Both the position numbers and the translations under genes were made by a program. Shown one piece after another: positions 1,369-17,427 of a DNA stretch of 28,059 nt. The stretch is from Candidatus Magasanikbacteria bacterium CG_4_10_14_0_2_um_filter_33_14 (GTDB lineage Bacteria; Patescibacteriota; Patescibacteriia; Magasanikbacterales; UBA922). The notes beneath the pieces were generated by a model. The model was not told the DNA's origin. It made no database searches and saw only the letters and a list, made by a program, of their open reading frames with translations. Within the stretch, counting starts at the first letter, position 1. Each line of letters starts with the position of its first letter. The DNA lies in NCBI GenBank assembly GCA_002793035.1, contig PFPL01000047.1:1-28059 (forward strand). The letters are read 5' to 3'.

Positions 1369-1413
1369 ACAATTAACAATAAACAATTAACAATTAACAA
1401 CTATCATCATTCT

Positions 1414-1980: not shown

Positions 1981-2004
1981 ACCAATTAACTAATAAACTA
2001 ATAT

Positions 2005-2970: not shown

Positions 2971-2979
2971 GTTAATATT

Positions 2980-3540
2980 ATGGATATACTGGAAAGACAT
3001 GTTGATAATGAACCAAATAAAGTAAGAGATTTTAAAGATTTTAAATTATCTGAAGATTTGTTTGAGGATGCTGAAGGTAGAAATTTAAAATTTAAATATG
3101 CTTATGATAATAATCCTTCTGTAGAAATTGAATTGGAATTTAGAAAACAAATAAAAGAAGAAAAAGAAGATTATTTTATAAAAATAAAAAAAGATGGTGA
3201 AAATATAGTAGAATTGACCTTTGAATTTTATCAAGAAAATAATAGTTTATTAGTTACTGATAGTATAGATAAATCAAATAATTTGGATAATGAGGATAAG
3301 GATAGATTGAAAGAAATAGGTACTGAACTATATAAAAGGATGATTGAATTTTTTGAAAGTTTATCTGATGATAAAAAAGAAAAATTTGAACATCGTGTTA
3401 TACCTTATCCAAGTTCTGAAATGAGCTTATCTACATGGAATAAAATTTTTCTTGAAAATGTAGGTCTTAAATCAAAGGGTTACAAATTAAAATCTCCAAA
3501 GAAAAGGAATGATGTGTATTATTGGAGTAAAGTTTATTAG
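2980..3540 (+). CDS. Hypothetical protein (186 aa) inserted between atpG and atpD; no recognisable family
   Basis: ORF on the operon strand starting 10 nt after the atpG stop. It is very Lys/Glu/Asn/Asp-rich, has no TM segment and carries no recognisable motif. It is more A/T-rich than the atp genes. Confidence 0.55.
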   Translation: MDILERHVDNEPNKVRDFKDFKLSEDLFEDAEGRNLKFKYAYDNNPSVEIELEFRKQIKEEKEDYFIKIKKDGENIVELTFEFYQENNSLLVTDSIDKSNNLDNEDKDRLKEIGTELYKRMIEFFESLSDDKKEKFEHRVIPYPSSEMSLSTWNKIFLENVGLKSKGYKLKSPKKRNDVYYWSKVY

Positions 3541-3584
3541 AAAAAAATATTCAATTAAATTTTAAAAAATAAAAAGAATTTTAA

Positions 3585-4970
<1,386 letters not shown>

Positions 4971-5099
4971 GAAGGCCTGAAAGGCCAGAAAAGCCAAAAA
5001 GGCTTGAAAGGCTATTAAGGTTATAAGTTAGAAAATAAATAATTGAAAAGTACAAAGCTTTTTAGGCATTTCAAGCTTTTCAAGCATTTTAAGCCTTTA
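4971..5099. repeat. Two opposed arrays of a 9-bp unit in the atpD-atpC spacer
   Basis: Array A (4971-5023) reads gaaggcct/gaaaggcca/gaaaagcca/aaaaggctt/gaaaggcta/ttaaggtta. Array B (5055-5099) reads aagcttttt/aggcatttc/aagcttttc/aagcatttt/aagccttta. The B units are roughly the reverse complement of the A units (aagccttt pairs with aaaggctt). Confidence 0.8.
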
Positions 5100-5101
5100 A
5101 T

Positions 5102-5521
5102 ATGATGATCAAATTCAGCGTTATCACACCAGAAAAAAAAGTTTACGAAAACGAAGTTTTTCAAGTAAGTATTCCTACTACAACTGGTGAAATTACAGTA
5201 TTGCCAGGCCATATTCCTATGGTATCTGTTCTTCAAGCTGGAGAAATGAGAATAAAAGACAAAGATGGTGAACATCCTTATGCTGTCTCTGCTGGTTTCT
5301 TGGAAGTAAGAGCAAACAATGAACTTGTTATTTTGGCTGATAGAGCTGAAAGAGCTGACACTATTGATTTGGTTCGTGCTGAAGAATCTCGCAAGAGAGC
5401 AGAAGAAGAAATGAAAAAAGCCAAAGCTGGTCAAGATGTTGACTATGCTAGACTCCAAGCTTTGATTGACAAAGAGATGAACAGAATCAGAGTTGGTAAT
5501 AAATATAGAAAATTAAAGTAA
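5102..5521 (+). CDS. atpC: F1Fo ATP synthase epsilon subunit
   Basis: N-terminal beta-sandwich signature VITPEKKVYENEV...IPTTTGEITVLPGHIPMVSVLQAGEMRI, with a helical C-terminal domain. It is the last gene of the atp cluster. An alternative start is at 5105. Confidence 0.9.
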   Translation: MMIKFSVITPEKKVYENEVFQVSIPTTTGEITVLPGHIPMVSVLQAGEMRIKDKDGEHPYAVSAGFLEVRANNELVILADRAERADTIDLVRAEESRKRAEEEMKKAKAGQDVDYARLQALIDKEMNRIRVGNKYRKLK

Positions 5522-5553: not shown

Positions 5554-5566
5554 AATATAAATTTAT

Positions 5567-6634
5567 ATGAATGAAAATGGATTATCTGTCGATCCAAACG
5601 ACATAGTAGAATCTCCAGAAAGGAAAGAAATGAGTAGAGGAGATCTACATCGAGATATTGAAAAAAATTTAAAAGAAAATAAAGTAAAACCTGTAGAAGC
5701 CAGAGAATTAATGGCAAAAATTTCAGAGACTTGTGTTGATGGTAGACGTGAAGAAGGTGCTATAGGTACTCCTGGTGGTAATGCTGGTGAATTTGTTTTG
5801 ATGCTCGCTGCTCAATTTGGTGAAAGGTCAGCTAAAATTACACGTGACAATATTAGTCGGTATCTTGAATATTTTTTAGAAGTTAATGGTAGTTTTTATT
5901 TTCATACAGATAGAAAAGCCCTAGGTAATATATCAGAGGAAACTATTAAAGATCCAGAAGTGGAAGGATATAAAGAATTATTAAGAAAGTTAACTTCAAT
6001 TGAACATGTTGGTTGTGGTCATTTGGCAAAACTTTTACAATTTCCTAAAGAATATGGTGTAAATGAAACTTTTATAAAGAATGTTATTGAGGCTATTTAT
6101 TTTAGAATGTGGACCGTAAACAATGCTTTATCTAAAGCTACAAACGAAGCTGAAAAAGAAAAAATAATGAAAAGAAAAAGAATTGACTTTGAAATTTTAT
6201 CTGGAACTCATGAGGAAAAGGCTGTAGTTGTAGTAAAAAGAGTAAAAAATAATGTGGAAACAGGAGAGAAAAAAGAATTAGATACTATAAGCTTAGATTC
6301 CAAAGTTCCTATGATTTCCCCAAAAGGTAATGGCGTTTCTTTTTTTGTTTCTCATCCTAAGGCTAAAGGTTTTTTGAGAGCTAGTTTAGCTGCTGAAGCT
6401 GAAAGAATTTTTCCAGATGAGGGAGTTAATAGTGAAGATTTATTGAAGAAGATTAATGATTTGGGTAAAATACAAAGTGCTCAAACTTTGGCTCGTTTAG
6501 CTGTCACAAGAAGAGAGGGGCAACCAGATCGAGGTTATCCTATTTTTCTGGCAGTTTATGATGAAGAAGGTATTTTTTTGAGGTTAGAAGATGATGGTAG
6601 TAATGTTGCTACTTTGGCTGAGTTACAATCTTAA
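5567..6634 (+). CDS. Hypothetical soluble protein (355 aa) with CxDxR ... HxxCG motif pair
   Basis: Long ORF with ordinary composition and no TM segment. CVDGR lies at residues 56-60 and HVGCGH at residues 147-152. I cannot assign a family. Confidence 0.7.
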   Translation: MNENGLSVDPNDIVESPERKEMSRGDLHRDIEKNLKENKVKPVEARELMAKISETCVDGRREEGAIGTPGGNAGEFVLMLAAQFGERSAKITRDNISRYLEYFLEVNGSFYFHTDRKALGNISEETIKDPEVEGYKELLRKLTSIEHVGCGHLAKLLQFPKEYGVNETFIKNVIEAIYFRMWTVNNALSKATNEAEKEKIMKRKRIDFEILSGTHEEKAVVVVKRVKNNVETGEKKELDTISLDSKVPMISPKGNGVSFFVSHPKAKGFLRASLAAEAERIFPDEGVNSEDLLKKINDLGKIQSAQTLARLAVTRREGQPDRGYPIFLAVYDEEGIFLRLEDDGSNVATLAELQS

Positions 6635-6660
6635 AAAGTTGTCTAAGCAATATTAGAATA

Positions 6661-7397
6661 GGCTCTAGACTAGCAGAAAGTATGATATACTATCAATACT
6701 ATGCTAGATACAGCCAAAATAAGTGAATATAAAATCAAAAAAATTATTACCCATTTTTGTTTAGATATTACCGCTGACAGAACGGCATATTTGCTGGGTA
6801 TAAATCGCAATACGATTAACCATTGGTATAAGATATTTCGACTTGCAGTTTATGCCTGGCAAATGAAAGAATGTAAAAAAATATTTGGTGAAGCAGAAGT
6901 GGATGAAAGTTACTTTGGTGCAAAACGGAAACGTGGCTATCGCGGAAAGCTGAAACGTGGTAGAGGAACTCAGAAACAACCGGCGTTTGGTTTGTTCAAA
7001 CGTAATGGAAGAGTGTATACTGAAATCATTCCCAATTGTACCAAAGCTGTATTACAAGGTATAATTAAAGGAAAAGTTGATCCATCTATGGTTATTTATT
7101 CAGATAAATGGCGTGGCTACGATGGGCTTGTTGACGTGGGATATGACAAACACTTTCGTGTGAATCATGGTGACAATGAATTTTCAAAGGGCAATGGTGT
7201 TCACATCAATGGTATTGAGAACTTCTGGAGCTTTACCAAACGACGTCTTACTAAATTCAATGGGGTGAAGAAAAATTTTGAACTTCATCTCAAAGAATCT
7301 GAATGGCGTTATGATAAAGATCCAAAAGTTCTTGAAAAAGAACTGTGGATTATTCTTAAAGGGCACTCTAAATTGTAAGTTTTGCTAGTCTAGAGCC
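6661..7397 (+). mobile_element. Intact IS1595-family insertion sequence
   Basis: Perfect terminal inverted repeats: ggctctagactagca (6661-6675) and tgctagtctagagcc (7383-7397). They are extendable to 17 bp if flanking bases are counted. The direct repeat tagaata sits immediately outside both ends (6654-6660 and 7398-7404). The element carries a single transposase ORF. Confidence 0.85.
6701..7378 (+). CDS. IS1595-family (ISXO2-like DDE) transposase
   Basis: N-terminal HTH-like segment (RTAYLLGINRNTINHWY). Catalytic-region pattern VDESYFG ... VIYSDKWRGYDGL ... HINGIENFWSFTKRRL is typical of the ISXO2-like transposase domain. Confidence 0.85.
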   Translation: MLDTAKISEYKIKKIITHFCLDITADRTAYLLGINRNTINHWYKIFRLAVYAWQMKECKKIFGEAEVDESYFGAKRKRGYRGKLKRGRGTQKQPAFGLFKRNGRVYTEIIPNCTKAVLQGIIKGKVDPSMVIYSDKWRGYDGLVDVGYDKHFRVNHGDNEFSKGNGVHINGIENFWSFTKRRLTKFNGVKKNFELHLKESEWRYDKDPKVLEKELWIILKGHSKL

Positions 7398-7412
7398 TAG
7401 AATAATATAAGG

Positions 7413-7444
7413 AATCATAGTCTTTATCAAAACTATGGTTTTTA
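7413..7444 (+). terminator. Rho-independent terminator, probably belonging to CDS 5567..6634 and displaced by the IS insertion
   Basis: Stem aatcatagt / actatggtt (one G-U pair) with a 10-nt loop, running into a short T-run (ttttt at 7439-7443). It lies just outside the right end of the IS1595 element. Confidence 0.5.
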
Positions 7445-7499
7445 TAAGATACAAAAAAAGTCAAAAAACTGTGCATATGTATTTTTTTAATACTTAACA

Positions 7500-8092
7500 A
7501 AATCCTCCAGCGAAGCTGGACGGTTACCATCCCATCAAAGATGGACTAGTTTACAACAAAGAGCCAGATAGTGTAGAATAATAACATATGACTAAGCCAA
7601 ACTACTACCGAAAAAGCAATCATACGACATACGATTGTCGCTACCATATTGTATTTATACCAAAATATAGATATCATGTACTCTCAGACGAAAAGGTAGC
7701 AACATTCGTGAAAACAGTATTTGAACAAGTATGTAATAATAATGAGGTAGTTATTATTGAAGGGAAGATACGTTCTAATCATGTCCACTTGTATCTATCC
7801 GTACCTCCTAAACATTCAATAGCAGACATAGTTAAATATCTCAAGGAAAAGAGTGCTTCACGTTCATTTAGACAATTTCCAGAACTCCTAAAACGCTACT
7901 GTGGCAGACACTTTTGGGCACGAGGATACTTTGTAAGTACTGTTGGCATAACAGATGATATAATAAAGGCTTACATACATAACCAAGAAGAGAAAGAACG
8001 GCAAGAGGAAGAACAACTACGTCAATTAAAACTTTGGAAATAGCACGACAAAGTCGGTGTCCCGTGAAACCGCCGACTATGTCGGCGGTAAT
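7500..8092 (+). mobile_element. IS200-type element (IS200/IS605 family, tnpA only); boundaries approximate
   Basis: A Y1 transposase ORF is flanked by locally GC-rich hairpins. Upstream hairpins are tccagc-gaa-gctgga (7506-7520) and ccatc-aaa-gatgg (7532-7544). The downstream hairpin is accgccgac-tat-gtcggcggt (8069-8089). There are no terminal inverted repeats, as expected for this family. Confidence 0.65.
7588..8043 (+). CDS. tnpA: IS200/IS605-family Y1 (HUH) transposase TnpA
   Basis: YDCRYHIVFIPKYRY, the HUH motif SNHVHLYLSVPP, and the catalytic-Tyr region HFWARGYFVSTVG. The size (151 aa) is typical. Confidence 0.92.
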   Translation: MTKPNYYRKSNHTTYDCRYHIVFIPKYRYHVLSDEKVATFVKTVFEQVCNNNEVVIIEGKIRSNHVHLYLSVPPKHSIADIVKYLKEKSASRSFRQFPELLKRYCGRHFWARGYFVSTVGITDDIIKAYIHNQEEKERQEEEQLRQLKLWK

Positions 8093-8231
8093 TCATTGAC
8101 ATTTAGTATGTTTAGTGAGAAAATATATCCTGTCATAAATCTATTAGTCTTAGATATGCCACTATTTTAGTAAAAAATGACTTTTCCTCGTTTTTTTGTA
8201 GATTATAACAAAACATTATTTTAGTACTTTT

Positions 8232-8774
8232 ATGTTAAAATTTTTTGTAAAAATATTTAAAACACCTGAAAATATAATTTCTTTTCCAAAAAACGATCTT
8301 AGCCAGATGGATTTTTTTGAAATTGGAGAAAAAATACAAGATAAAGTAAAAAAAATGTTTAGTGGTTCTTTGGCTATCAGACAAATTGACGCTGGATCAG
8401 ACAATGCCTGTGAACAAGAACTTGTGGCGTTGTCTAATAGTTTTTATGATATAGAACGTTTTGGTATTCATTTTGTGGCTTCACCAAGACATGCTGACAT
8501 GCTTTTGGTGACTGGTCCTGTGACACGAAATATGGTCAAGGCACTTAAAGATGCTTATGATGGTACTCCTGATCCTAAAATTGTGGTAGCAATAGGGGAT
8601 GATGCTATTGGTGGGGGAATATTTAAAGATTCTTATGCTGTATTAAATGGAGTAGATTCAGTAATACCTGTAGATTATCAAATTCCTGGAGATCCTCCTA
8701 CACCTACTTTTATTCTTCAATCTTTACTTAAGATTCTTGAAACAATAGAAAATAAACCTTCACAGAAAAAATAA
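8232..8774 (+). CDS. NuoB/HycG/HyfI-like hydrogenase small-subunit homologue with degenerate Fe-S ligands
   Basis: Family motifs ERFGIHFVASPRHADMLLVTGPVTR, PDPKIVVAIGDDAIGGGIF and VDYQIPGDPPTP are present. The positions normally holding the four cluster cysteines read D57, C60, D124 and D154. Confidence 0.85.
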   Translation: MLKFFVKIFKTPENIISFPKNDLSQMDFFEIGEKIQDKVKKMFSGSLAIRQIDAGSDNACEQELVALSNSFYDIERFGIHFVASPRHADMLLVTGPVTRNMVKALKDAYDGTPDPKIVVAIGDDAIGGGIFKDSYAVLNGVDSVIPVDYQIPGDPPTPTFILQSLLKILETIENKPSQKK

Positions 8775-8775
8775 T

Positions 8776-10827
8776 ATGTTAGAAATTATTACATCATCAA
8801 TTAGCTTTTTTACGTTACTTTCTTTTTTTGGAGTTGGTGCAGTAGGTTCTTTGTTAGTACATAAAAATAACAAAAATGCCAATGCTTGGAGTAGTTTTTT
8901 TGCTATTGTAGGTTCATTCTGGGGTGTGTTTTTTTCCATTATTATGATTTTAAGGAAGAAGAGTTTACTGTTTGATTTGAAAACATCAATTTTTTCACTT
9001 TTTAATATATCTTTTCATATTGATTTATTATCTAGTTTTTTTATTTTTGTTATTTCTTTGTTAGCATTATTTTGTTCTATTTATGGTATAGGATATATTA
9101 GACATTATTACAAAAAATATGATATTGGTGTTTTAGGATTTTTTTATAATTTATTTATTGGTAGTTTGTTTTTAGTTGTTACTTCTTCCAATGCTTTATT
9201 TTTTTTAATTTTTTGGGAAATCATGTCGATTGCTTCATACTTTTTAGTTGTCTATGATAGTAATGATGAAAGCAATGTAAAAGCAGGTTTATTGTATTTG
9301 GTAATGACTTACATAGGAACATCTTTTATTATTTTGTCTTTCTTACTTTTGTATAAGTATATTGGATCTTTTGATTTTTTGGTGATAAAAGATAGTATAG
9401 CTCTTGTGCCTGCAGTTATAAAAAATATTGTTTTTATCTCTGCGTTTATAGGTTTTGGTTTGAAGGCTGGTATTATTCCTTTACATATTTGGTTGCCAGC
9501 AGCTCACCCTGCTGCCCCTTCTCATGTTTCAGCTTTGATGTCAGGGGTGATGATTAAGACTGGTATTTACATGATGATAAGATTGTTTTTGGATATTCTA
9601 CAACCAATACCACTTTGGTGGGGTTTGGTAGTTTTGGTGGTTGGGTCTATTTCAGCTTTACTTGGAGTTTTGTATGCACTTACTGAACATGATATAAAAA
9701 GATTGTTGGCTTACCATAGTATAGAAAATATTGGTATTATTTTGCTTGGTTTGGGGAGTGCATTGACTTTTTATTCCCTCAACTTATCAGCTTTAGCTTT
9801 GCTTGGTTTGGTAGCTGCCTTATTTCATACAATAAATCATGCTATTTTCAAGGCTCTACTTTTTTTGAGTGCAGGATCTGTTATCAATGAAACACATACT
9901 CGTAATATGGAGGAATATGGTGGACTTATAAAGTATATGCCACAAACAGCCTTGTTTTTTCTTGTTGGATCCATTGCAATTTCTGCCTTGCCACCGTTTA
10001 ATGGTTTTTTTAGTGAGTGGTTGACTTACCAAGCTTTGTTTCAAGGAATAGCGCAAATGCATTTTTGGACACAGTGGATTTTTATTTTAGCTGCCGGTTC
10101 ATTAGCCTTTACTGGTGGCTTAGCTCTAGCTTGTTTTGTCAAAGCTTTTGGTGCTACATTTTTGGCACGTCCTCGAAGTAAGGAGGTAACTCATGCTAAA
10201 GAGTCTGCTTTATCTATGCGTTTAGGTATGGGTTCTTTGGCAGTATTAGCACTTTTGTTTGGTGTTTTTTCTGGTTATATAATTAGTTTACTTAAAACAA
10301 TTGGACAAGGTCTAAGTGTTTTTAAAGATTCAGCTTCGGCTGTAGATGTTTCATCTGCTCAAATTATAAACGTCTCTAATGGATTTTCTGTAATCTCTGG
10401 TTTTGGAATTTTTACTTTGTTGGTTGTTATTACTTTTTTGGTAATTTTTATCTTTAAAAAAATAATCAATAATAAACAAAAAGAATGTATCAGTAATACT
10501 TGGGATTGTGGTACAGATTTGAGTCCACGTGCGGAAATAACTGCAACAGGATTTTCAAGATCAATTGTTCAAATATTTAGTGGTTTGTTAAAACCAACTA
10601 TTCAACATCATATTGAATATTATGATGATGAAAATAGGTATTTACCAAAATCAAGGACAGTTACTCTAAATATTGGTAACATGTATCATACTTATTTTTA
10701 TCAGCCTTTACATTTAGTAATTAACAAATTATCAACTAGAGCTAGAGATATACAAAATGGAAATATTGATCTTTATATTTCTTATATTTTTATTGCACTT
10801 ATGTTAGCTCTATTAGTAATATTATAA
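8776..10827 (+). CDS. HyfB/NuoL/MrpA-like antiporter-type membrane subunit
   Basis: Polytopic protein of 683 aa with the signature WLPAAHPAAPSHVSALMSGVMIKTGIYMMIR plus HSIENIGIILLG and HAIFKALLFLSAG. Confidence 0.88.
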   Translation: MLEIITSSISFFTLLSFFGVGAVGSLLVHKNNKNANAWSSFFAIVGSFWGVFFSIIMILRKKSLLFDLKTSIFSLFNISFHIDLLSSFFIFVISLLALFCSIYGIGYIRHYYKKYDIGVLGFFYNLFIGSLFLVVTSSNALFFLIFWEIMSIASYFLVVYDSNDESNVKAGLLYLVMTYIGTSFIILSFLLLYKYIGSFDFLVIKDSIALVPAVIKNIVFISAFIGFGLKAGIIPLHIWLPAAHPAAPSHVSALMSGVMIKTGIYMMIRLFLDILQPIPLWWGLVVLVVGSISALLGVLYALTEHDIKRLLAYHSIENIGIILLGLGSALTFYSLNLSALALLGLVAALFHTINHAIFKALLFLSAGSVINETHTRNMEEYGGLIKYMPQTALFFLVGSIAISALPPFNGFFSEWLTYQALFQGIAQMHFWTQWIFILAAGSLAFTGGLALACFVKAFGATFLARPRSKEVTHAKESALSMRLGMGSLAVLALLFGVFSGYIISLLKTIGQGLSVFKDSASAVDVSSAQIINVSNGFSVISGFGIFTLLVVITFLVIFIFKKIINNKQKECISNTWDCGTDLSPRAEITATGFSRSIVQIFSGLLKPTIQHHIEYYDDENRYLPKSRTVTLNIGNMYHTYFYQPLHLVINKLSTRARDIQNGNIDLYISYIFIALMLALLVIL

Positions 10828-10831
10828 TTTT

Positions 10832-11758
10832 ATGTTAGTTTTTATTTGGATAATACAATTAATTTTTATACCATTTTTTTCACCATTGTGTATTGGTATC
10901 ATTAGAAAGATAAAAGCTAAATTGCAAAATCGTCAAGGTGCAAATATTTTTCAACCCTATAGGGATCTTTGGAAACTTTTACACAAAGATGAAGTAATAA
11001 GTAGTGATGCTTCTTGGATTTTTAAATTTACTCCTTATATTATTTTTGCTGTGACTTTGGTCGTTGGTCTTAGCGTCCCTCTTTTTTTACCACGTATTGT
11101 AGGTTTTGTTACTAGTGATATATTGTTTATTGTTTATGCTTTAGCTATTAGTACTTTCTTTATGGCTTTAGCTGGTATGGATACAGGAAGTGCTTTTGGT
11201 GGCTTTGGCTCAAGTCGTGAAATGACTATTGCAGCTTTAGCTGAAGGTGGTTTTATTTTTTCACTTTTGACTATGGCTTTGATAGCTGGTTCTAGTAATT
11301 TGTTTACCATAGCTGGTCTTACTAGATCAATTGATAGTCAATCATTTTTGCCAGCCATATTGGCTTTTGGAGGCTTTTTTATTATTTTATTGGCTGAGAC
11401 TTCCAGATTTCCTTTTGATAACCCTGCTACTCATTTGGAATTGACTATGGTTCATGAAGCTATGATTTTGGAATGTTCAGGTAAACGTTTAGCACTTATG
11501 GAATGGGCAGCTTCAAATAAGTTACTTATTTTTATGTCTCTTGGTGCTAATTTATTTTTTCCATTTGGACTTGATTTGAATGTTGGTTTGGGTACAATAG
11601 TCTTGGGTATGTTTTACTTTTTAATAAAAATATTTTTGTTTTGTGTGGTTGTAGCTCTTTTAGAATCAAGTATCGCTAAATTTAGATTTTTTCGCTTACC
11701 AGATTTATTGCTAGTTTCTTTTATTTTCAATGTGGTGGCCATTGGACTTATAAAGTGA
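10832..11758 (+). CDS. HyfC/HycD/NuoH-like membrane subunit
   Basis: Polytopic protein of 308 aa. It contains the ETSRFPFDNPATHLELTMVHEAMILECSG motif (the NuoH-type E..R.PFD..E.E.EL pattern). Size and position match HycD/HyfC. Confidence 0.82.
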   Translation: MLVFIWIIQLIFIPFFSPLCIGIIRKIKAKLQNRQGANIFQPYRDLWKLLHKDEVISSDASWIFKFTPYIIFAVTLVVGLSVPLFLPRIVGFVTSDILFIVYALAISTFFMALAGMDTGSAFGGFGSSREMTIAALAEGGFIFSLLTMALIAGSSNLFTIAGLTRSIDSQSFLPAILAFGGFFIILLAETSRFPFDNPATHLELTMVHEAMILECSGKRLALMEWAASNKLLIFMSLGANLFFPFGLDLNVGLGTIVLGMFYFLIKIFLFCVVVALLESSIAKFRFFRLPDLLLVSFIFNVVAIGLIK

Positions 11759-11796
11759 ACTTAAAATATTTTTTTGATTTTTTTATTTGATAATTT

Positions 11797-12444
11797 ATGA
11801 ATTTATTAACTTTACAGTTTTTATCACAGATACTCCTATTATCTATTGTTTTTTTACTTATCATGAAGAAAAATTTTTCGGCTGTTTCTGCTTATAGTTT
11901 GCAATCATTGGTAGTGGTTATCATATTGTTGAACTCATTTTTTGAAACCAAAGACATGTGGATGTTGCTAGTTATCTTGGTGATGTTGATTGTCAAAGTT
12001 ATTTTGGCTCCTGTATTTTTTATTCGTTTGATTAGAAAGTATGCTTTGGCTTTCTCGGTTAGTACTTATCTTAGCACACCTATAACATTAATCATTATTA
12101 CAATCTTAGTATTCATAGCTCACTCTCAAAAATTAATTCCTTTGACTAGGATCGTTCCTGATCACCAGGTCTTGTTATCACTGGCCTTGTCATCACTGTT
12201 TCTTTCTCTATTTTTGATAGTAAATCGTAAAGGTGCTTTGTCACAAATTATAGGTATTTTATCTTTTGAAAATAGTATTGTCGTGTTTGCTGTTTTTGCT
12301 AATTTGGAACAGTCAGCTGCTCTTCAATTAGGAATTGTTTTTGATATTTTCATTTGGATTATGATTGCCTCCGTTTTTATATCAATGCTTTATAAACATT
12401 TTGGAACATTGAATGTATCTTCTATGAAAAATCTAAAAGATTAA
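11797..12444 (+). CDS. HyfE-like small membrane subunit
   Basis: The 215-aa length matches HyfE. The C-terminal region LSQIIGILSFENSIVVFAV...MLYKHFGTLNVSSMKNLK parallels the E. coli HyfE C-terminus (ENG...THGTLDVNNLTALK), recalled from memory. Confidence 0.8.
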   Translation: MNLLTLQFLSQILLLSIVFLLIMKKNFSAVSAYSLQSLVVVIILLNSFFETKDMWMLLVILVMLIVKVILAPVFFIRLIRKYALAFSVSTYLSTPITLIIITILVFIAHSQKLIPLTRIVPDHQVLLSLALSSLFLSLFLIVNRKGALSQIIGILSFENSIVVFAVFANLEQSAALQLGIVFDIFIWIMIASVFISMLYKHFGTLNVSSMKNLKD

Positions 12445-12448
12445 AAAT

Positions 12449-13894
12449 ATGGAAATTCTTTTTATCATTACAACTTTGTTTATAGTCGCTGTTATAAATT
12501 TGATTACCAAAAGAAAAAGTATTATTGAAGTTGCTTCAATAATTGCTTCCTTAATTTATTTAGTATTATCTGTTGCTATAGCCCTACAGGTGTCTTCATC
12601 TGGCCTCTATGCCCCATGGTCTTGGCAATTTTTTGCAATTGATGATCTAGGAGCTATTATTGTACTGGTTCTTGGGTTGGTTGGTTTTACGACTACTATT
12701 TATTCTGTACAATACTTACGTCAGGAGATGTACAAAAATATCATTGGTTTCAAACGAATGAAACAATATTTTGTTTTATTAAACATATTTTTTGCAGCTA
12801 TGTTTTTGGCGATTACTTCTAGTAATCCCATTTTTGCTTGGATTTCTATTGAGGCTACAACTTTGTCTACAGCCTTTTTGATAAGTTTTTATAATAAACC
12901 ATCAGCTGTTGAAGGTGCTTGGAAATATTTAATCATTAACTCTGTTGGGTTACTTTTGGGATTTTTTGGAACTTTATTATTTTTTACTTCTATTGATTTG
13001 TCTAGTGCCGGTTTAATTAATTGGCAGTTACTGACTGCTAATGCTACACACCTCGACCCATTACTTGCAAAAATTGCCTTTGTTTTTGTACTTATTGGTT
13101 ATGGAACTAAAGTTGGTTTGGTACCAATGCATACCTGGAAACCTGATGCTTATAGCAAAGCACCTGCACCGATTGGTGCCTTATTGTCTAGTGCCTTATT
13201 ACCAATTGCCTTTGTAATAATACTTAGATACAAAGCCATTACAGATATTGTTGTTGGTCCTTTGTTTAGTCAGAGATTGTTTATTACTTTTGGTTTATTA
13301 TCTATTGTTGTGGCTGCTTTGATTATGTTTAACGCTAAAAATTACAAAAGACTTTTGGCTTATTCTAGTATTGAAAATGCCGGAGTGATGGTTCTTGGTT
13401 TTGCTTTTGGTGGCTTAGGTGTCTTTGCCGCTGTGCTTCATTTAATTTATCATTCTTGTGTTAAAGTTGTACTTTTTTTATCTTCGGGAAACTTGTTGCT
13501 TAAATACAATTCAGCCAAAATTTTTAATATCAAAGGTGCTTTAAAAATTATTCCAGTAACTAGTGTACTTTTTATTATAGGATTTTTGATTGTAACAGGT
13601 ATCCCGCCATTTGGTATGTTTATGACCAAACTTTATGTGTTGTCATCTGGTATGAAAGAGTATCCTATTGTTAGTTTAATTGCTTTGTTTTTTTTAGCAT
13701 TGGTTTTTGTAAGTTTTCTAAAATACATTACAACTATGTTTTTTGGAGACAAACCGGATAACATTGAGAAGGGCGAAAATAATATTTGGCTTTTGATACC
13801 ACAAATTTTTTTGGTAGTTGTTATTATTATTCTGAGTTTTTATTTACCACCTTTTTTACATACTTTAATCAACAATGTTGTTTTGCAATATTAA
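12449..13894 (+). CDS. HyfD/HyfF/NuoM-N-like antiporter-type membrane subunit
   Basis: Polytopic protein of 481 aa with VPMHTWKPDAYSKAPAPIGALLSSALLP and AYSSIENAGVMVLGF, typical of the NuoL/M/N-Mrp antiporter family. Confidence 0.85.
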   Translation: MEILFIITTLFIVAVINLITKRKSIIEVASIIASLIYLVLSVAIALQVSSSGLYAPWSWQFFAIDDLGAIIVLVLGLVGFTTTIYSVQYLRQEMYKNIIGFKRMKQYFVLLNIFFAAMFLAITSSNPIFAWISIEATTLSTAFLISFYNKPSAVEGAWKYLIINSVGLLLGFFGTLLFFTSIDLSSAGLINWQLLTANATHLDPLLAKIAFVFVLIGYGTKVGLVPMHTWKPDAYSKAPAPIGALLSSALLPIAFVIILRYKAITDIVVGPLFSQRLFITFGLLSIVVAALIMFNAKNYKRLLAYSSIENAGVMVLGFAFGGLGVFAAVLHLIYHSCVKVVLFLSSGNLLLKYNSAKIFNIKGALKIIPVTSVLFIIGFLIVTGIPPFGMFMTKLYVLSSGMKEYPIVSLIALFFLALVFVSFLKYITTMFFGDKPDNIEKGENNIWLLIPQIFLVVVIIILSFYLPPFLHTLINNVVLQY

Positions 13895-15470
13895 TATGAT
13901 AAAAGAAAAAATACAATTATATCTTCCAGAAAACGTAAATGTTGATTATCACGATAATTTGGCTATTTTTGAAGTGTCTTCTTCACAAATAGGGGATGTT
14001 GTTAATGATTTGCATAATCAAAAAAAACTTCCACTTAAGTTAGTTACTGTAACAGATGAAAGAAAAGAAAATGGGTCATTTAAAATTTGGTATTTATTTG
14101 GAGTGCCTGGTGATAATTTTTTTATGTGTCCTTTTGTTGTGTTGAAAAATACGATTGAATTTCCTTCATTGGCTAACATTGTACCTGAAATATTAAATTA
14201 TGAGAGAAAAATACAAACTTTTTTTGGTCTCAAAGCACTAGGCATACCAGATAATAGAGCTCTCATTTTACATGAAAATTATCCAAGTGATGTTTTTCCT
14301 CTTCGAAAAGATTTTGAGTGGAAAACTAAATTAAAAAAGTCTACTGGAAAATATGATTTTCAAGAAGTAAAAGGTGAAGGGATTTATGAGATTCCAGTTG
14401 GACCAATACATGCTGGTATTATTGAGCCTGGACATTTTCGTTTTAGTATGGTTGGAGAAAGTATTGTACAACTTGAACCACGCTTGGGTTATGTACACAA
14501 AGGTAGTGAAAAATTATTTGAAGTTCTTCCTCTTGAAGATAAAGTGCGCTTGTCAGAAAAAATTTCTGGTGATAGTTCTTTTAGTCATTCTTTAGCTTTT
14601 TGTCAGACAATAGAAAAACTAGCTGAAATTAATGTGACAAAACGTGCTTTATACTTGAGAACTATTTTTGCTGAATTGGAAAGACTGGCTAATCATTTTG
14701 GTGATATTGGAGCTATTATGATGGATACTGGTTTTAGTTTTGGTGGGGCTAATGGTTCACGTTTACGTGAGATGATTATGCAAATAAATGAAAAATTAAC
14801 AGGAAGCAGATTTTTGCGTCGAGTCAATACTATTGGCGGTGTAAAGAAAGACTTGAATAATGACAATAAAGATTATTTAAATAAGATATTAATAGATATT
14901 AGCAAAGATTTTGAAGAAGTTGTAGAAATTGCTGAAAATAGTGCTTCTGTATTGAATCGGCTCAAAGGTACAGGTATAATCTCTTTTGAGATAGCTAATA
15001 ATCTTGGTCTTGTAGGAGTAGCAGGTAGAGCAGTTGGTATAAAACGTGATACACGTATCGATCATCCTTATGCAGCTTATTTAGAAGTTTCTATGGGGCA
15101 AATACCTATCGAAGAAGAAGGGGACGTAAATGCTAGATTTCAAATTCGTCTTAAAGAAATTCGTAAATCATTAAATATAATACAAGAGTCTTTGCAAAAA
15201 ATGCCTGATGGTGAAATCGCTATTTCAAACAATGTCAATCTCATTATGAAAAAGAGTTCCTATGATGTTAGCATGGTTGAAGGTTGGCGTGGGGAAATAG
15301 TCTATTTTGTGGCTACAGATTCACAAGGAAACATTAGCAGAGTGTTCCCAAGAGATCCTTCATTTATCAACTGGTCAGCACTTGGAGAAGCTGGTTTGAA
15401 TAATATTGTACCTGATTTTCCTCTGATTAATAAGAGTTTTAATTTGTCTTATACAGGAAATGACCTATAA
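13875..15470 (+). CDS. HycE/HyfG-like fused NuoC-NuoD large-subunit homologue lacking all [NiFe] cysteine ligands
   Basis: The N-terminal part is NuoC-like. The NuoD/large-subunit core shows VGPIHAGIIEPGHFRF, EPRLGYVHKGSEKL and ELERLANHF. The N-terminal CxxC position reads S231-G-D-S234 and the C-terminal DPCxxC position reads N-L-S525-Y-T-G528. An alternative start at 13896 (MIKEK) would remove the overlap with the upstream gene. Confidence 0.88.
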   Translation: MLFCNINMIKEKIQLYLPENVNVDYHDNLAIFEVSSSQIGDVVNDLHNQKKLPLKLVTVTDERKENGSFKIWYLFGVPGDNFFMCPFVVLKNTIEFPSLANIVPEILNYERKIQTFFGLKALGIPDNRALILHENYPSDVFPLRKDFEWKTKLKKSTGKYDFQEVKGEGIYEIPVGPIHAGIIEPGHFRFSMVGESIVQLEPRLGYVHKGSEKLFEVLPLEDKVRLSEKISGDSSFSHSLAFCQTIEKLAEINVTKRALYLRTIFAELERLANHFGDIGAIMMDTGFSFGGANGSRLREMIMQINEKLTGSRFLRRVNTIGGVKKDLNNDNKDYLNKILIDISKDFEEVVEIAENSASVLNRLKGTGIISFEIANNLGLVGVAGRAVGIKRDTRIDHPYAAYLEVSMGQIPIEEEGDVNARFQIRLKEIRKSLNIIQESLQKMPDGEIAISNNVNLIMKKSSYDVSMVEGWRGEIVYFVATDSQGNISRVFPRDPSFINWSALGEAGLNNIVPDFPLINKSFNLSYTGNDL

Positions 15471-15557: not shown

Positions 15558-15586
15558 TTGAAATTAATATGAAATTAGCGTATAAT
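15558..15586 (+). promoter_or_regulatory. Sigma70-type promoter for the CBS/permease pair
   Basis: TTGAAA (15558-15563), a 17-nt spacer, then a perfect TATAAT (15581-15586). It lies about 70 nt upstream of the ATG at 15655. Confidence 0.55.
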
Positions 15587-15654: not shown

Positions 15655-16125
15655 ATGACAGAACAAGAAAAATATCTTGTCAGAAACAACATGCAAAATG
15701 TTGTGACATCGGTAAATATTAATGCTACTTTTAGTGAAGCATTACAAAAAATGGTCGACGGACGTACCAATGGTTTGGTTGTCGTTGATGATGAAAATTA
15801 TGTAAAAGGTATTCTATCTAGTATAGACTTGATTAGTTATTTGGTACCTGACTATTTAGAGGAGGATAAACATTTAGCTGCTTTTGAAGTTGCTGAAGAA
15901 TTTACAACCAGAATTAAAGAAATTGAAAATGAACCAATTACCAAATTTATGACAAAAGATGTTCATACTATTAAAGAAGATCGTACTTTGATGGAAGCTG
16001 CTACTATTCTTTCAGAGTTCAAAATTCGTCAGATTCCTGTAGTAAATGAGGAAGAAAAATTGGTTGGCTATATCAATCGTACTGACATTAAAAAAGCTAT
16101 TGCCCATGTTTTGGGAATTCATTAA
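15655..16125 (+). CDS. CBS-domain pair protein
   Basis: 156 aa with two CBS-like repeats (VVTSVN...GLVVVDDENYVKGILSSIDL and VHTIKED...IRQIPVVNEEEKLVGYINRTDI). Confidence 0.8.
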   Translation: MTEQEKYLVRNNMQNVVTSVNINATFSEALQKMVDGRTNGLVVVDDENYVKGILSSIDLISYLVPDYLEEDKHLAAFEVAEEFTTRIKEIENEPITKFMTKDVHTIKEDRTLMEAATILSEFKIRQIPVVNEEEKLVGYINRTDIKKAIAHVLGIH

Positions 16126-16152
16126 TAAAAATAATAAAGATTTATAAATTAT

Positions 16153-17427
16153 ATGGGAATTTCTTTTTGGATTACGCTCATTGTCTTTGTTGTTACCTAT
16201 GCTATAATAATTTCTGAAAAAGTTCATCGTACAGTCATTGCTATGGCTGGTGCAGGTCTTATGGTTTTGCTTGGTATTGTTACACAAGTAAAAGCTATTG
16301 AAGGAATTGATTTCAATACACTTGGACTTCTTATTGGTATGATGATTATCGTAGGAATTGCCAAGCATAGTGGAATGTTTCAATACGTTGCTATCTGGGC
16401 TACAAAAGTTGGTAAAGGAAATCCAACAAAAATTTATATTTTGTTGTTATCTATTATAGCCGTGTTTTCTGCTTTGCTCGATAACGTTACGACTGTCCTT
16501 CTTATGGTACCTGTTACTTTCGTAGTTGCTCACAACTTGAAAGTAAATCCTAAACCATTTTTGATTGGTGCAATTTTACTTTCTAATATTGGTGGTACAG
16601 CTACTCTTATTGGAGATCCACCAAACATTTTGATTGGTAGTGCTAGTGGTCTTACTTTCAATGATTTTATTGTGAATCTTGCTCCTATTTCTGTGTTAAT
16701 TTCTATAGTGACTATTGCACTTCTGATTTTTATTTATCGCAAACAACTTGTTGCAGCTCCAGAATCAGCAGCTATTATCGCAAAATTTAATCCAAAAGAT
16801 GCTATTTCTGATGTAAAACTACTTAAGAAATCTTTGTTTGTTCTTGCTATAGTTTTGGTAGGTTTCTTCACTCATGGAACTACACATCTTGAAGGTGCTA
16901 CTATTGCTCTTGGTGGTGCTGCTCTTATGTTACTTTTGACAATGCACGATCCTGAAGAACATTTGAAAGAAGTAGAATGGACAACGATTTTCTTCTTTAT
17001 GGGACTTTTCATTCTTGTAGTAGCTTTGGAAGAAGTTGGCGCAATTCGTATGTTGGCTGAAGGATTACTAAAACTTACAGGTGGTAATATGATTGCTACA
17101 ACCATGAGTGTTTTGTGGGGTTCTGCTGTATTTTCTGCTATTGTTGACAATATTCCTTTTGTAGCTACAATGATCCCTCTTATAAAGGATTTAGGTGCAA
17201 TTTCAGGCTTACCATTAGCACCATTGTGGTGGGTATTGGCTCTTGGTGCTGATATTGGTGGTAATGCAACTCTTGTTGGTGCTTCTGCCAATGTAGTAGT
17301 GAGTGGTATAGCTGGTAGAGAAGGACATAAGATTGGTTTTGGTGAATATATGAAGATTGCTTTACCTTTGACTTTTATAGGATTGGTCATGTGTTCAATT
17401 TACGTTTTCTTCCGTTATCTTGTTTAA
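16153..17427 (+). CDS. ArsB/NhaD-superfamily (CitMHS-like) ion/anion permease
   Basis: Polytopic protein of 424 aa with duplicated hairpin motifs SALLDNVTTVLLMVPV and SAIVDNIPFVATMIPL, plus GGTATLIGDPPNILIG. Confidence 0.8.
   Translation: MGISFWITLIVFVVTYAIIISEKVHRTVIAMAGAGLMVLLGIVTQVKAIEGIDFNTLGLLIGMMIIVGIAKHSGMFQYVAIWATKVGKGNPTKIYILLLSIIAVFSALLDNVTTVLLMVPVTFVVAHNLKVNPKPFLIGAILLSNIGGTATLIGDPPNILIGSASGLTFNDFIVNLAPISVLISIVTIALLIFIYRKQLVAAPESAAIIAKFNPKDAISDVKLLKKSLFVLAIVLVGFFTHGTTHLEGATIALGGAALMLLLTMHDPEEHLKEVEWTTIFFFMGLFILVVALEEVGAIRMLAEGLLKLTGGNMIATTMSVLWGSAVFSAIVDNIPFVATMIPLIKDLGAISGLPLAPLWWVLALGADIGGNATLVGASANVVVSGIAGREGHKIGFGEYMKIALPLTFIGLVMCSIYVFFRYLV

Follow-up and report, generated by a model that had tools for sequence, protein, structure and literature searches.

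A complex-I-like Ehr operon without redox-metal ligands downstream of the ATP synthase genes in a Magasanikbacteria genome

Results

A six-gene operon of hydrogenase ancestry

The window analysed here is a stretch of 28,059 nucleotides from Candidatus Magasanikbacteria bacterium CG_4_10_14_0_2_um_filter_33_14 (contig PFPL01000047.1). Six plus-strand open reading frames lie at 8232-15470, with intergenic gaps of 1–38 bp, in the order S-A-B-C-D-L. The first, ehrS (8232..8774, 180 aa), encodes a NuoB/HycG/MbhJ-like small subunit (Pfam PF01058, Oxidored_q6/NuoB, E 6e-25). It is followed by ehrA (8776..10827, 683 aa), a HyfB/HycC/MbhH-like antiporter-type subunit with a C-terminal extension, which matches HycC (E 9e-83), MbhH (E 8e-67) and the NCBIfam hydrogenase-4 subunit B model (657 bits, below the cut-off of 667). 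The product of ehrB (10832..11758, 308 aa) is a HyfC/HycD/NuoH-like subunit that anchors the peripheral arm in the membrane (PF00146, NADHdh, E 5e-44; HycD, E 2e-39). The small HyfE-like membrane subunit encoded by ehrC (11797..12444, 215 aa) had no match in Pfam or the PDB; its match to NCBIfam NF008556 (E 2e-16) spans the full model length and scores below the cut-off. A second antiporter-type subunit, HyfF/NuoN-M-like, is encoded by ehrD (12449..13894, 481 aa; NCBIfam hydrogenase-4 subunit F, 406 bits), and ehrL (13896..15470, 524 aa) specifies a fused NuoC+NuoD, HycE-like large subunit (PF00329, Complex1_30kDa, and PF00346, Complex1_49kDa). A start of ehrL at 13875 was set aside, as homologues are 523–524 aa long and begin MIKEKIQ; judged by these, the start is most likely 13896, 2 bp past the stop of the HyfF-like gene.

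The profile matches to all six subunit types and the tight spacing bear out the preliminary description of a six-gene Hyf/Ech-type operon, and its descent from a group-4 hydrogenase is likewise supported. The nearest solved structures are HycE, HycG, HycC and HycD of Escherichia coli formate hydrogenlyase (7z0s) and MbhJ/H/L (6cfw); for S, A, B and L, the nearest homologues with known structures belong to the group 4f/Hyf-type hydrogenases and formate hydrogenlyase.

Loss of the cofactor ligands

Residue-level alignments with these structural homologues, together with cysteine counts, agree with the proposal that the metal ligands, and with them the canonical redox-cofactor sites, have been lost from both peripheral subunits (four of four cysteines in L, three of four in S). 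Where MbhJ has GSCNGCDIE, GACPTGG and PGCPP, ehrS has GSDNACEQE (8394-8420), GDDAIGG (within GDDAIGGG, 8595-8618) and PGDPP (8685-8699). Relative to MbhJ and HycG, the first, third and fourth [4Fe-4S] cysteines are now Asp and the second is kept, in a protein with a single Cys in all. Against HycE (E 3e-67), ehrL reads KISGDSSFSHS for RVCGICGFAHS and NLSYTG for DPCYSC; three of the four NiFe cysteines have become Ser and the last Gly, and the entire protein has two Cys. The former L1 motif is LSEKISGDSSFSHS (14550-14591), and the former L2 motif with the C-terminus is DFPLINKSFNLSYTGNDL (15414-15467). Relatives share these substitutions: the ehrL replacement motifs hardly vary among 120 homologues, and the 120 closest homologues of ehrS all have D57, C60, D123 and D124, with either D or N at position 154. 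The top Foldseek match of ehrL was 7z0s_E (TM 0.84); the monomer structure models are of low confidence right at the L pocket.

The missing partners noted previously are also missing in our searches. The window contains no NuoI/HyfH-like gene, none of its six frames holds the ferredoxin-type motif CxxCxxCxxxC, and hyp, hycI, formate dehydrogenase, CO dehydrogenase and ferredoxin genes were not found within it. The sequence shows a complex with no NiFe site, no [4Fe-4S] cluster in the small subunit and no ferredoxin-type domain.

An intact membrane arm under purifying selection

The membrane subunits retain their charged residues. Of 63 ehrA family members, at least 97% share E148, K230, H244, K261, H351, H355, K359 and E414; ehrB has conserved Glu at E130, E138, E189, E203, E209 and E214; and K67 and E158 of ehrC and E135, K221, H228, H335 and K339 of ehrD are invariant. 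The ion-translocation apparatus is complete: both antiporter-like subunits have their Glu/Lys/His chains, the NuoH-like subunit has its Glu chain, and a HyfE-like subunit is present. There is likewise no variation in the coupling loops, GPIHAGIIEPGHFRF and the one of the NuoH-like subunit.

Against an 85%-identical relative, dN/dS of the six genes is 0.09–0.18, a purifying range throughout and the same as that of housekeeping neighbours. Conservation is highest in S and L, whether or not a locus has the cluster, and the large subunit is 60–65% identical between different candidate phyla; by these measures the peripheral arm is shown to be constrained as much as the membrane arm. The dN/dS values, the near-invariant replacement motifs and the six intact reading frames uphold the earlier view that the operon is maintained rather than pseudogenized.

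A cluster-less clade within the Ehr family

The pattern of substitutions places the operon in the known Ehr (Ech-hydrogenase-related) family. It belongs to the branch found in CPR bacteria, which are tiny symbionts. C224S, D226, D277, C518S and C521G are common to the window L and to Ehr of Nitrospira, ammonia-oxidizing archaea, Acidobacteria and Firmicutes, among which the window clade nests in a neighbour-joining tree. Ehr large subunits have gained two invariant Asp (D226 and D277) exactly at former metal positions, and retain the Glu of the β1-β2 loop, H231, K513 and Y519.

The preliminary description held that this operon goes further than ordinary Ehr, and the small subunit sustains this. 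The four-cysteine set is kept in all 105 other Ehr and group-4f loci and absent from 54 cluster-less loci, of which the 14 placed in the tree form one clade. A Fer4 (2x[4Fe-4S]) domain or open reading frame, often fused, was found frequently, and exclusively, in scanned cluster-bearing loci; none was found in the cluster-less clade. By this survey, loss of the small-subunit cluster is a trait of the clade, which has kept all six genes down to ~42% L identity. Within it the former ligand set of S varies (TCDD, DADD, DCGD, SEGD, TEGD, NEGD and DVEN). Some cluster-less loci come from records labelled Firestonebacteria, Fibrobacteria, Endomicrobiales, Thermoleophilia and Bdellovibrionales; these labels may reflect lateral transfer or binning error.

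Linkage to the ATP synthase operon

The 3′ part of an F1Fo ATP synthase operon, a recurrent neighbour of the cluster-less clade, lies upstream on the same strand (25..5521, Pfam), with atpA (to 1368, cut by the window start), atpG (2005-2970), atpD (3594-4970) and atpC (5102-5521). Two orphan open reading frames specific to the window (1414-1980 and 2980-3540, both plus strand) are inserted among these genes. As described earlier, one orphan gene and two IS elements separate atpC from the operon. They occupy a window-specific insertion (5557..8095) that is missing from the 85%-identical relative and contains, all on the plus strand, a 355-aa orphan open reading frame (5567-6634), an IS1595-family transposase (6701-7378, PF12762) and an IS200 Y1 transposase (7588-8043, PF01797). 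In that relative the tblastn match of ehrS begins 188 bp past the match of atpC. Homology with the relative L082 resumes exactly at 8096, and by this comparison the conserved plus-strand region 8096..8231 is a remnant of the ancestral atpC-ehrS spacer, the junction having been split in the window by three insertions. A promoter-like TTGACA-17-GAAAAT lies at 8096-8124; such sites occur there at chance frequency.

The suggested partnership with ATP synthase finds support in synteny far beyond the window. Of the 42 cluster-less loci that are informative, 13 have atpC as the gene immediately before ehrS, a count inflated by shared ancestry of the loci, and no atp gene occurs in any of 105 cluster-bearing loci. 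The 13 loci span all sub-branches, with S identities of 50–100%; their atpC-ehrS tblastn gaps go down to 25–31 bp, and in locus L100 the gap by open reading frame coordinates is 9 bp. The atp genes are the sole recurrent neighbours of the clade. This gene-order evidence shows that, ancestrally, the Ehr operon continued from the 3′ end of the F1Fo ATP synthase genes. In a close relative, subunit c is without the Na+-binding Q/S/T signature, an absence that makes H+ coupling likely.

Downstream of ehrL, a CBS-pair protein (15655-16125) and an ArsB/NhaD/MamN-like permease of the ion-transporter superfamily (16153-17427), both plus strand and identified by Pfam/NCBIfam, are conserved among close Magasanikbacteria relatives and not beyond. 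The pair (15655..17427), preceded by a promoter-like site at 15558-15586 (score 11/12), is probably a transcription unit of its own.

Discussion

Jaffe et al. (2020) reported that CPR Ehr large subunits are monophyletic, stand apart from other Ehr and are missing the NiFe cysteines, and that they ‘likely cannot interact with H2' (PMC7304191); their clade is almost certainly that of the window. The absence of NiFe cysteines from CPR Ehr large subunits was therefore already known. That study addressed the large subunit only; we found no statement in it on the small-subunit cluster, antiporter function or ATP synthase. Ordinary Ehr, exemplified by Geobacter sulfurreducens GSU0739-0745, Nitrospira and ammonia-oxidizing archaea in the passages of PMC7894505, PMC4758237, PMC10284858 and PMC10432482 that cite Coppi (2005) and Marreiros (2013), shares with the window the six subunit types, the conserved membrane residues and the loss of the NiFe cysteines under the signatures SGD[ST][ST]...H and NKSFNLSYSGNDL. 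It differs in keeping the S cluster cysteines, often with a Fer4 dicluster domain, in a gene order that is mostly A-B-C-D-L-S rather than S-A-B-C-D-L, and in never adjoining the atp genes to which the window clade is frequently fused. The same layout of six genes, with the motifs GPIHAGIIEPGHFRF and DFPLINKSF, is found in sister loci whose NiFe cysteines are intact (Thermincola, Desulfotomaculum, Ectobacillus and others). Hydrogenases proper possess what the window is without: CxxC pairs in L, a full set of four Cys in S, a relay of the HycF/HyfH or Fer4 type, and maturation by Hyp proteins. The operon encodes a complex-I-like six-subunit machine, a CPR-type cluster-less Ehr descended from a group-4f-like [NiFe] hydrogenase.

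The Mrp Na+/H+ antiporters (6z16, 7qru and 7d3u) and MBH, through its Mrp-like module (6cfw), offer a comparison. Like the window complex, they have two MrpA/MrpD-type subunits with TM5 Glu, TM7 Lys, TM8 Lys/His and TM12 Lys, and Mrp works without redox input, as we propose here. Mrp is without a peripheral arm and a NuoH-like subunit. Because the redox-metal sites are lost, conservation is strong and fusion to the atp operon is frequent, ions are probably moved without electrons. The reading that we favour, short of even confidence, is a redox-independent H+/cation translocator that works with the ATPase and is functionally Mrp-like. Several observations count against it. MrpB, C, E, F and G, the Na+ path in Mrp and MBH, have no homologues in the window, so that homology does not demonstrate antiport. 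Six subunits of ~2,400 residues with a conserved peripheral arm make a costly antiporter for a ~1 Mb genome, and an expense beyond that of a plain antiporter argues for a more specific role of the arm. Ehr forms with the cluster and ferredoxin domain still in place have exactly the same pocket residues, which suggests that pocket function is electron-linked there and would have to be lost or changed in the window clade. Lastly, only about a third of informative loci adjoin atp genes.

The cost of the complex is among the points that lend some weight to an alternative we consider rather unlikely, in which the pocket that once carried NiFe hosts non-redox chemistry, or simply binds something, and ion flow is coupled to that event. 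ATP synthase could be fed by ion export powered by an exergonic scalar reaction such as decarboxylation or hydrolysis, which consume a proton; conversely, proton-motive force made by the ATPase could power something uphill, for instance the vectorial hydration of CO2 or the capture of a substrate. Cyanobacterial NDH-1MS (CupA) and the DAB CO2-hydration systems are precedents for complex-I-type membrane modules with non-redox chemistry, though NDH-1MS remains dependent on redox turnover. L and S being the most conserved subunits even without cofactors, the gained D226 and D277, the retained β1-β2 Glu, H231, K513 and Y519, the invariant coupling loops and the fusion with an operon suited to an energy-conserving partner all favour such coupling. 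However, a candidate substrate is lacking, the recurrent neighbours include no enzyme or transporter except the atp genes, and carbonic-anhydrase-like, CupA-like and DabA-like proteins are absent. The same pocket occurs in Ehr with electron input, making non-redox catalysis not the simplest reading for the family, and the monomer models are of low confidence at the pocket.

Two further readings seem to us doubtful. The complex might still be a redox enzyme, receiving electrons through an unrecognized cofactor or partner, for example a metal site with carboxylate ligands in S or a soluble protein whose gene lies elsewhere, a route of the kind suggested for the formate dehydrogenase-Ehr complexes of Margulisbacteria. 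Ordinary Ehr is regarded as redox-coupled (PMC6349859); the S residues D57, C60, D123 and D124 (with D/N at 154), invariant in the core subclade, could form a metal site. Yet one Cys and three Asp are not a combination known to ligate [4Fe-4S], these residues vary across the clade, L has no metal-binding Cys, neither a Fer4 domain nor a redox gene recurs nearby, and CPR bacteria are generally without electron-transport chains and quinones, a literature statement echoed in a passage of PMC11974145. Equally improbable is that, instead of being an independent transporter, the complex assists or regulates the F1Fo ATPase, perhaps as a local proton conduit or as a brake that senses pH or ions. The co-operonic arrangement, as tight as in L100, and the protonatable residues of the peripheral arm would suit this role, which is without precedent and is opposed by the roughly two thirds of informative loci not beside atp genes and by Lys/Glu chains indicative of genuine ion translocation. 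A decaying, functionless hydrogenase remnant, to which the loss of all cofactor ligands and the adjoining IS elements might point, is effectively refuted by intact reading frames, purifying dN/dS, conservation across candidate phyla and persistence of all six genes through the clade, the IS elements lying outside the genes and being absent in the relative.

For the favoured translocator, a Methylocystis complex assigned by its authors to group 4f and induced 16–20-fold at pH 5 offers a parallel (bioRxiv 10.1101/2025.08.29.672306); from its reported AARVS motif, our own reading is that it is Ehr-like. The window complex would no longer perform electron transfer, acting instead as a secondary H+/cation translocator independent of redox. 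Its former active-site pocket, predicted to be lined by E177, S224, D226, S227, S228, H231, D277, K513 and Y519, may form, with the acidic patch that replaces the S cluster, a protonatable entry or gate for the NuoH-like channel rather than a catalytic centre. An H+-type F1Fo ATPase would build a proton gradient from fermentative ATP, the complex would use or shape that gradient, and translocation may thereby serve Na+/K+ and pH homeostasis.

Results

Six ORFs separated by gaps of 1–38 bp occupy 8232–15470 on the plus strand, which carries all substantial genes of the window (~31% G+C). Profile searches assign ehrS (8232–8774, +) to the NuoB/Oxidored_q6 small subunits, ehrB (10832–11758, +) to the NuoH/HyfC-like proteins, ehrD (12449–13894, +) to the HyfF-type antiporter-like subunits and ehrL (13896–15470, +) to large subunits in which NuoC and NuoD are fused. 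The product of ehrA (8776–10827, +) is a HyfB-type antiporter-like protein scoring 657 bits against the hydrogenase-4 subunit B model (cut-off 667), and that of ehrC (11797–12444, +) is HyfE-like over the full model length (E 2e-16), with no match in the PDB or Pfam. The closest solved structures are the E. coli formate hydrogenlyase subunits (7z0s) and P. furiosus MBH (6cfw), and HycE gives the best superposition with a predicted large-subunit model (TM 0.84). Since homologues measure 523–524 residues, 13896 is the most likely start of ehrL, in preference to the ATG further upstream at 13875. A promoter and terminator scan of the window gave results at chance level, so transcription units are read from gene spacing only.

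The other genes of the window encode ATP synthase subunits, three orphan ORFs, two transposases, a CBS-pair protein, an ArsB/NhaD/MamN-like permease, an ABC exporter, a UvrD-PD-(D/E)XK helicase-nuclease, DciA, a class II tRNA synthetase, MreB and MreC. A 262-amino-acid ORF at 23114–23902 has no family match and is fast-evolving, as it is 46% identical in an 85%-identical Magasanikbacteria relative (locus L082), where its flanking genes are 80–92% identical. The window start truncates atpA; the ATG at 25 is internal to the gene because the Pfam N-terminal barrel matches from profile position 30 and the relative's product has 495 amino acids.

Residue-level alignment of the large subunit with HycE places KISGDSSFSHS opposite RVCGICGFAHS and NLSYTG opposite DPCYSC. 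Relative to HycE and MbhL, all four NiFe ligands are lost (Cys to Ser at three positions, Cys to Gly at the fourth), a loss common to 120 homologues. In the small subunit, the MbhJ stretches GSCNGCDIE, GACPTGG and PGCPP read GSDNACEQE, GDDAIGG and PGDPP, so that the proximal [4Fe-4S] ligands of MbhJ and HycG become D-C-D-D, with three of four lost; the small subunit retains one cysteine in total and the large subunit two. Neither CxxCxxCxxxC (Fer4) nor paired CxxC motifs occur in any of the six frames across the whole window, and no hyp, hycI, formate dehydrogenase, CO dehydrogenase or ferredoxin gene lies within its 28 kb. Group 4 [NiFe] hydrogenases (Hyf/Hyc/Ech/Mbh), in contrast, have two CxxC pairs in the large subunit, a proximal [4Fe-4S] cluster held by four Cys of the small subunit and a 2x[4Fe-4S] relay subunit or domain of the HycF/HyfH/NuoI type, together with Hyp/HycI maturation genes. 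The preliminary description had presented 8232–15470 as a redox-dead hydrogenase-like operon, with the metal-ligand cysteines of both peripheral subunits substituted and no ferredoxin-type subunit, electron-input partner or maturation gene in the window; the alignments, motif scan and gene inventory bear it out in every particular. The lining of the former pocket is not readable from monomer AlphaFold2 models, as the large-subunit model (pLDDT 79) is of low confidence at the β1–β2 loop (145–201) and the C-terminal pocket strand (508–524), and the small-subunit model (pLDDT 54) falls below 50 in the former cluster loops.

We compared the operon with the Ehr complexes (Ech-hydrogenase-related or energy-converting hydrogenase-related), whose definition we take from papers citing Marreiros 2013 (BBA). 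Ehr is a six-gene cluster of NuoL-, NuoH-, HyfE-, NuoM/N-, NuoD- and NuoB-like subunits with a group-4-related large subunit devoid of NiFe cysteines, and the window operon is likewise. Homologues of the large subunit number in the thousands; the 120 best matches show 60–100% identity and derive mostly from CPR bacteria (Magasanikbacteria at 80–85%, then Paceibacterota, Peregrinibacteria, Gracilibacteria and others). Among these 120, LSEKISGDSSFSH and DFPLINKSFNLSYSGNDL, the motifs that replace the ligand sites, hardly vary, which answers the suggestion of the preliminary description that relatives be surveyed for fixed substitutions. With one genome scanned per species, a relative turned up in at least 591 genomes, and the 80 loci retained come from Nitrospira, ammonia-oxidising archaea, Acidobacteria, Verrucomicrobia, Rokubacteria, Firmicutes and CPR, organism groups from which Ehr complexes are described in four papers (PMC10284858, PMC10432482, PMC6349859, PMC7894505). 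Every retained locus has these same six genes, ordered A-B-C-D-L-S or S-A-B-C-D-L. Five relatives (Thermincola, Desulfotomaculum, Ectobacillus, a Negativicutes and a Myxococcales genome) are true group-4f-like hydrogenases that keep the NiFe cysteines (ICGxCS ... ELCYxCxDR). Only six strongly conserved differences separate Ehr large subunits from these five: C224S, x226D, G277D, A488P, C518S and C521G, meaning that metal-binding thiols were swapped for Ser or Gly and two new Asp residues gained. The window protein has all six, sharing C224S, D226, D277, C518S and C521G with the Ehr of Nitrospira, ammonia-oxidising archaea and others, and it is nested inside Ehr in a neighbour-joining tree (distance-based only and without support values). 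By these sequence features, the window operon is an Ehr complex. An intact small-subunit [4Fe-4S] site, which the window protein lacks, is typical of Ehr.

Other assignments fit less well. Complex I (Nuo/Nqo) has NuoI, NuoA, NuoJ, NuoK and an N-module or other electron input, whereas the operon has six subunits only; the cluster N2 ligands are lost from its small subunit, the DY of RMDYLHS in Nqo4, at the quinone-ligating Tyr/His of NuoD, aligns with SG, and NCBIfam Nuo models score far under their cut-offs against its subunits. With Mrp antiporters the operon shares MrpA-/MrpD-type subunits bearing conserved Glu/Lys/His transport residues, but ORFs for the small subunits MrpB, C, E, F and G are found neither within nor beside it. 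SGDSS and SGND resemble the SGNH-hydrolase blocks GDS and GxND, a likeness rejected as evidence: the fold is unrelated and most of the residues are common to the true hydrogenase sisters.

Tandem arrangements also occur: five loci (L033 and L069 of Nitrospirota, L004 of Fibrobacteria, L018 of Methanomassiliicoccus, and L108) carry two Ehr-type clusters, or Ehr beside another group-4-like cluster, and in L033 and L069 the two Ehr copies belong to different branches of the Ehr tree.

The small-subunit survey combined the loci of the genome scan with those of a metagenome search seeded by the window-type small subunit. All four cluster cysteines are present in 105 loci, all outside the window's clade; 54 loci without them fall within it, their four ligand positions ranging over D/T/S/N, C/E/A/V, D/G/E and D/N. 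The 14 cluster-less loci included in the neighbour-joining tree of large subunits form one clade, indicating a single loss of the cluster. Many cluster-bearing relatives have a Fer4 2x[4Fe-4S] domain fused at the small-subunit N terminus, or a ferredoxin ORF of ~110 amino acids between the large- and small-subunit genes, and neither was found in any scanned cluster-less locus of the genome-contig set. Hyp/HycI maturation genes are absent also from the recurrent neighbours of cluster-less loci. The earlier proposal that this operon goes beyond ordinary Ehr in losing both small-subunit cluster and ferredoxin relay is thereby extended from one operon to a whole clade.

D57, C60, D123 and D124 never vary within the core subclade, where position 154 is either D or N. 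At the four former ligand positions, deeper branches carry TCDD, DADD, DCGD, SEGD, TEGD or NEGD, so the cluster gave way to an acidic patch and not to any single shared set of substitute ligands. A conserved alternative metal site is not claimed, because D-C-D-D/N, although invariant in the core subclade, is not conserved clade-wide. Some clade members carry the labels Firestonebacteria, Fibrobacteria, Endomicrobiales, Thermoleophilia and Bdellovibrionales (loci L001, L004, L008, L009 and L010; locus G+C ≤0.57), which could reflect lateral transfer out of CPR or mis-binning.

Against the 85%-identical relative, dN/dS is 0.10 for ehrS, 0.14 for ehrA, 0.18 for ehrB, 0.09 for ehrC, 0.11 for ehrD and 0.11 for ehrL, beside 0.03–0.17 for adjacent housekeeping genes in the same comparison. 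Mean pairwise identity within the cluster-less clade is 0.56 for the small and 0.50 for the large subunit, at least matching the membrane subunits, and subunits rank in conservation as they do in cluster-bearing Ehr; the peripheral arm was thus not relaxed after cofactor loss. Across all Ehr types, the charged ion-pathway residues are each kept by 92% or more of members, and most are kept by all: E148, K230, H244, K261, H351, H355, K359 and E414 in subunit A; E135, K221, H228, H335 and K339 in D; the Glu chain of B; and K67 and E158 of C. Also intact are the coupling elements: the β1–β2 loop GPIHAGIIEPGHFRF, and the NuoH-like loop, whose Glu and His are conserved. Pseudogenisation is rejected on dN/dS and conservation, and the operon is maintained, as had been supposed. 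In the relative's NCBI assembly the HyfB-like gene (locus L081, 4878–6928) is broken into products of 415 and 263 amino acids; in an ENA assembly with an identical large subunit (L082, 4877–6928) it is unbroken (683 amino acids), and the split is probably an assembly or frameshift error, not decay.

All-against-all clustering of the flanking ORFs of 40 cluster-less loci showed no recurrent neighbours other than atp genes (atpA/D in 13, atpC in 12, atpG in 11); redox partners, carbonic anhydrase, decarboxylases and transporters did not recur in these flanks. A bioenergetic tie to the ATP synthase had been put forward as worth testing, and atpC lies directly upstream on the same strand in 13 of the 42 cluster-less loci with enough upstream sequence, a count that includes near-duplicates and is inflated by shared ancestry. 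By comparison, the 1.39 Mb of sequence flanking the 105 cluster-bearing loci contains no atp gene. The 13 loci take in the most divergent branches, SEGD (L047) and NEGD (L153), and a further two informative loci lie close to atp genes. Where no insertion intervenes, tblastn gaps between atpC and ehrS measure 25–312 bp, and ORF coordinates give 9 bp in locus L100. Adjacency kept over 50–100% small-subunit identity, at operon-like spacing, argues for a functional link between ehr and the ATP synthase.

In the relative, the ehrS tblastn match begins 188 bp past that of atpC. The window is collinear with this relative except for three insertions (1366–2001, 2980–3555 and 5557–8095), so the atp–ehr junction was split only recently. 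The insertion at 5557–8095, between atpC and ehrS relative to L082, holds an orphan 355-amino-acid ORF without a family match, a short IS1595-type transposase (225 amino acids) and an IS200 Y1 transposase, followed by a GC-rich hairpin-like sequence at 8040–8095. Two further orphan ORFs lie inside the ATP synthase operon, at 1414–1980 (188 amino acids, atpA–atpG gap) and 2980–3540 (186 amino acids, atpG–atpD gap); their Lys/Glu/Asp-rich products match nothing in Pfam, NCBIfam or PHROG, and as the relative has neither, they are recent insertions into an essential operon. Just 3′ of ehrL, at 15655–17427, a CBS-pair protein is followed by the ArsB/NhaD/MamN-like permease (best NCBIfam model MamN, 199 bits, below cut-off). 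This pair is lineage-specific, being kept in close Magasanikbacteria relatives only, and may be a second, regulated ion transporter.

Na+-binding c-rings carry a Gln and Ser/Thr signature. The c subunit of a close relative (...GRNPE...AFAEAIAIYALV...) is without it, and from this motif we take its ATPase to be H+-coupled.

Discussion

Lacking an energy-releasing reaction, the complex would not be a primary pump. The simplest role is secondary H+/cation exchange, and our leading, still tentative, reading of the sequences is a putative exchanger, functionally Mrp-like, in which the former active-site pocket and the acidic patch of the small subunit serve as a protonatable entry or gate. The hydrophilic pocket and the patch would lead into the NuoH-like channel; an ungated proton conduit would be harmful; and the exchanger would work on a proton gradient built by the F1Fo ATPase from fermentative ATP. 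A Methylocystis complex classed as group 4f by its authors is induced 16–20-fold at pH 5 (bioRxiv 10.1101/2025.08.29.672306). We read it as Ehr-like from its reported AARVS motif, and by analogy its induction is compatible with, and gives some support to, the idea that the family at large serves pH or ion homeostasis.

The main rival to secondary exchange holds that the pocket still catalyses a reaction or binds a substrate, in a step coupled to ion flow. High conservation of both peripheral subunits and the cost of the machine speak for it, but no substrate is pointed to, and we consider it unlikely. Less likely again is a specific form for cluster-less Ehr, in which a small substrate or metal ion would occupy the pocket, a non-redox reaction or binding event at that site would be tied to movement of protons or cations and, with the co-transcribed F1Fo, a minimal chemiosmotic circuit would operate in CPR bacteria without electron-transport chains. 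We give little credence to a residual redox function through an unrecognised cofactor, given the lost ligands, and equally little to the complex being an accessory to the ATPase, despite their adjacency. Decay of the operon, given its purifying selection, is scarcely credible.

Ehr complexes have been termed a missing link between hydrogenases and complex I. To our knowledge, no function has been assigned to them in the twenty years since they were named. The family and its CPR occurrence without NiFe ligands are already known: Jaffe et al. 2020 (PMC7304191) found CPR Ehr large subunits to be monophyletic, apart from other Ehr and without metal-binding cysteines. Loss of the small-subunit cluster and ferredoxin relay found no mention in the literature searched, a search that did not take in the founding 2013 Ehr description. 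As far as we have established, what is new is that loss of this cluster and of the ferredoxin domain is a whole-clade trait, that constraint on the peripheral arm is undiminished after cofactor loss, and that the ehr operon is recurrently fused with the ATP synthase operon.

The cluster-less clade is a natural knock-out of all electron-carrying sites in which pocket, coupling-loop and ion-translocation residues are still under strong selection. It makes testable whether a complex-I-type peripheral arm can drive or gate ion translocation without redox chemistry, and is thus a natural experiment on the need for electrons in Ehr function and in complex-I-type coupling generally. Were the non-redox circuit real, this would be the first member of the complex I/membrane-bound hydrogenase superfamily with a complete peripheral arm to conserve energy without a redox cofactor, and the conserved function of the Ehr family would be independent of electron transfer. 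CPR bacteria have an ATP synthase, and we know of no means by which they make or manage an ion gradient; the recurrent fusion with the atp operon hints at a missing component of their membrane energetics.
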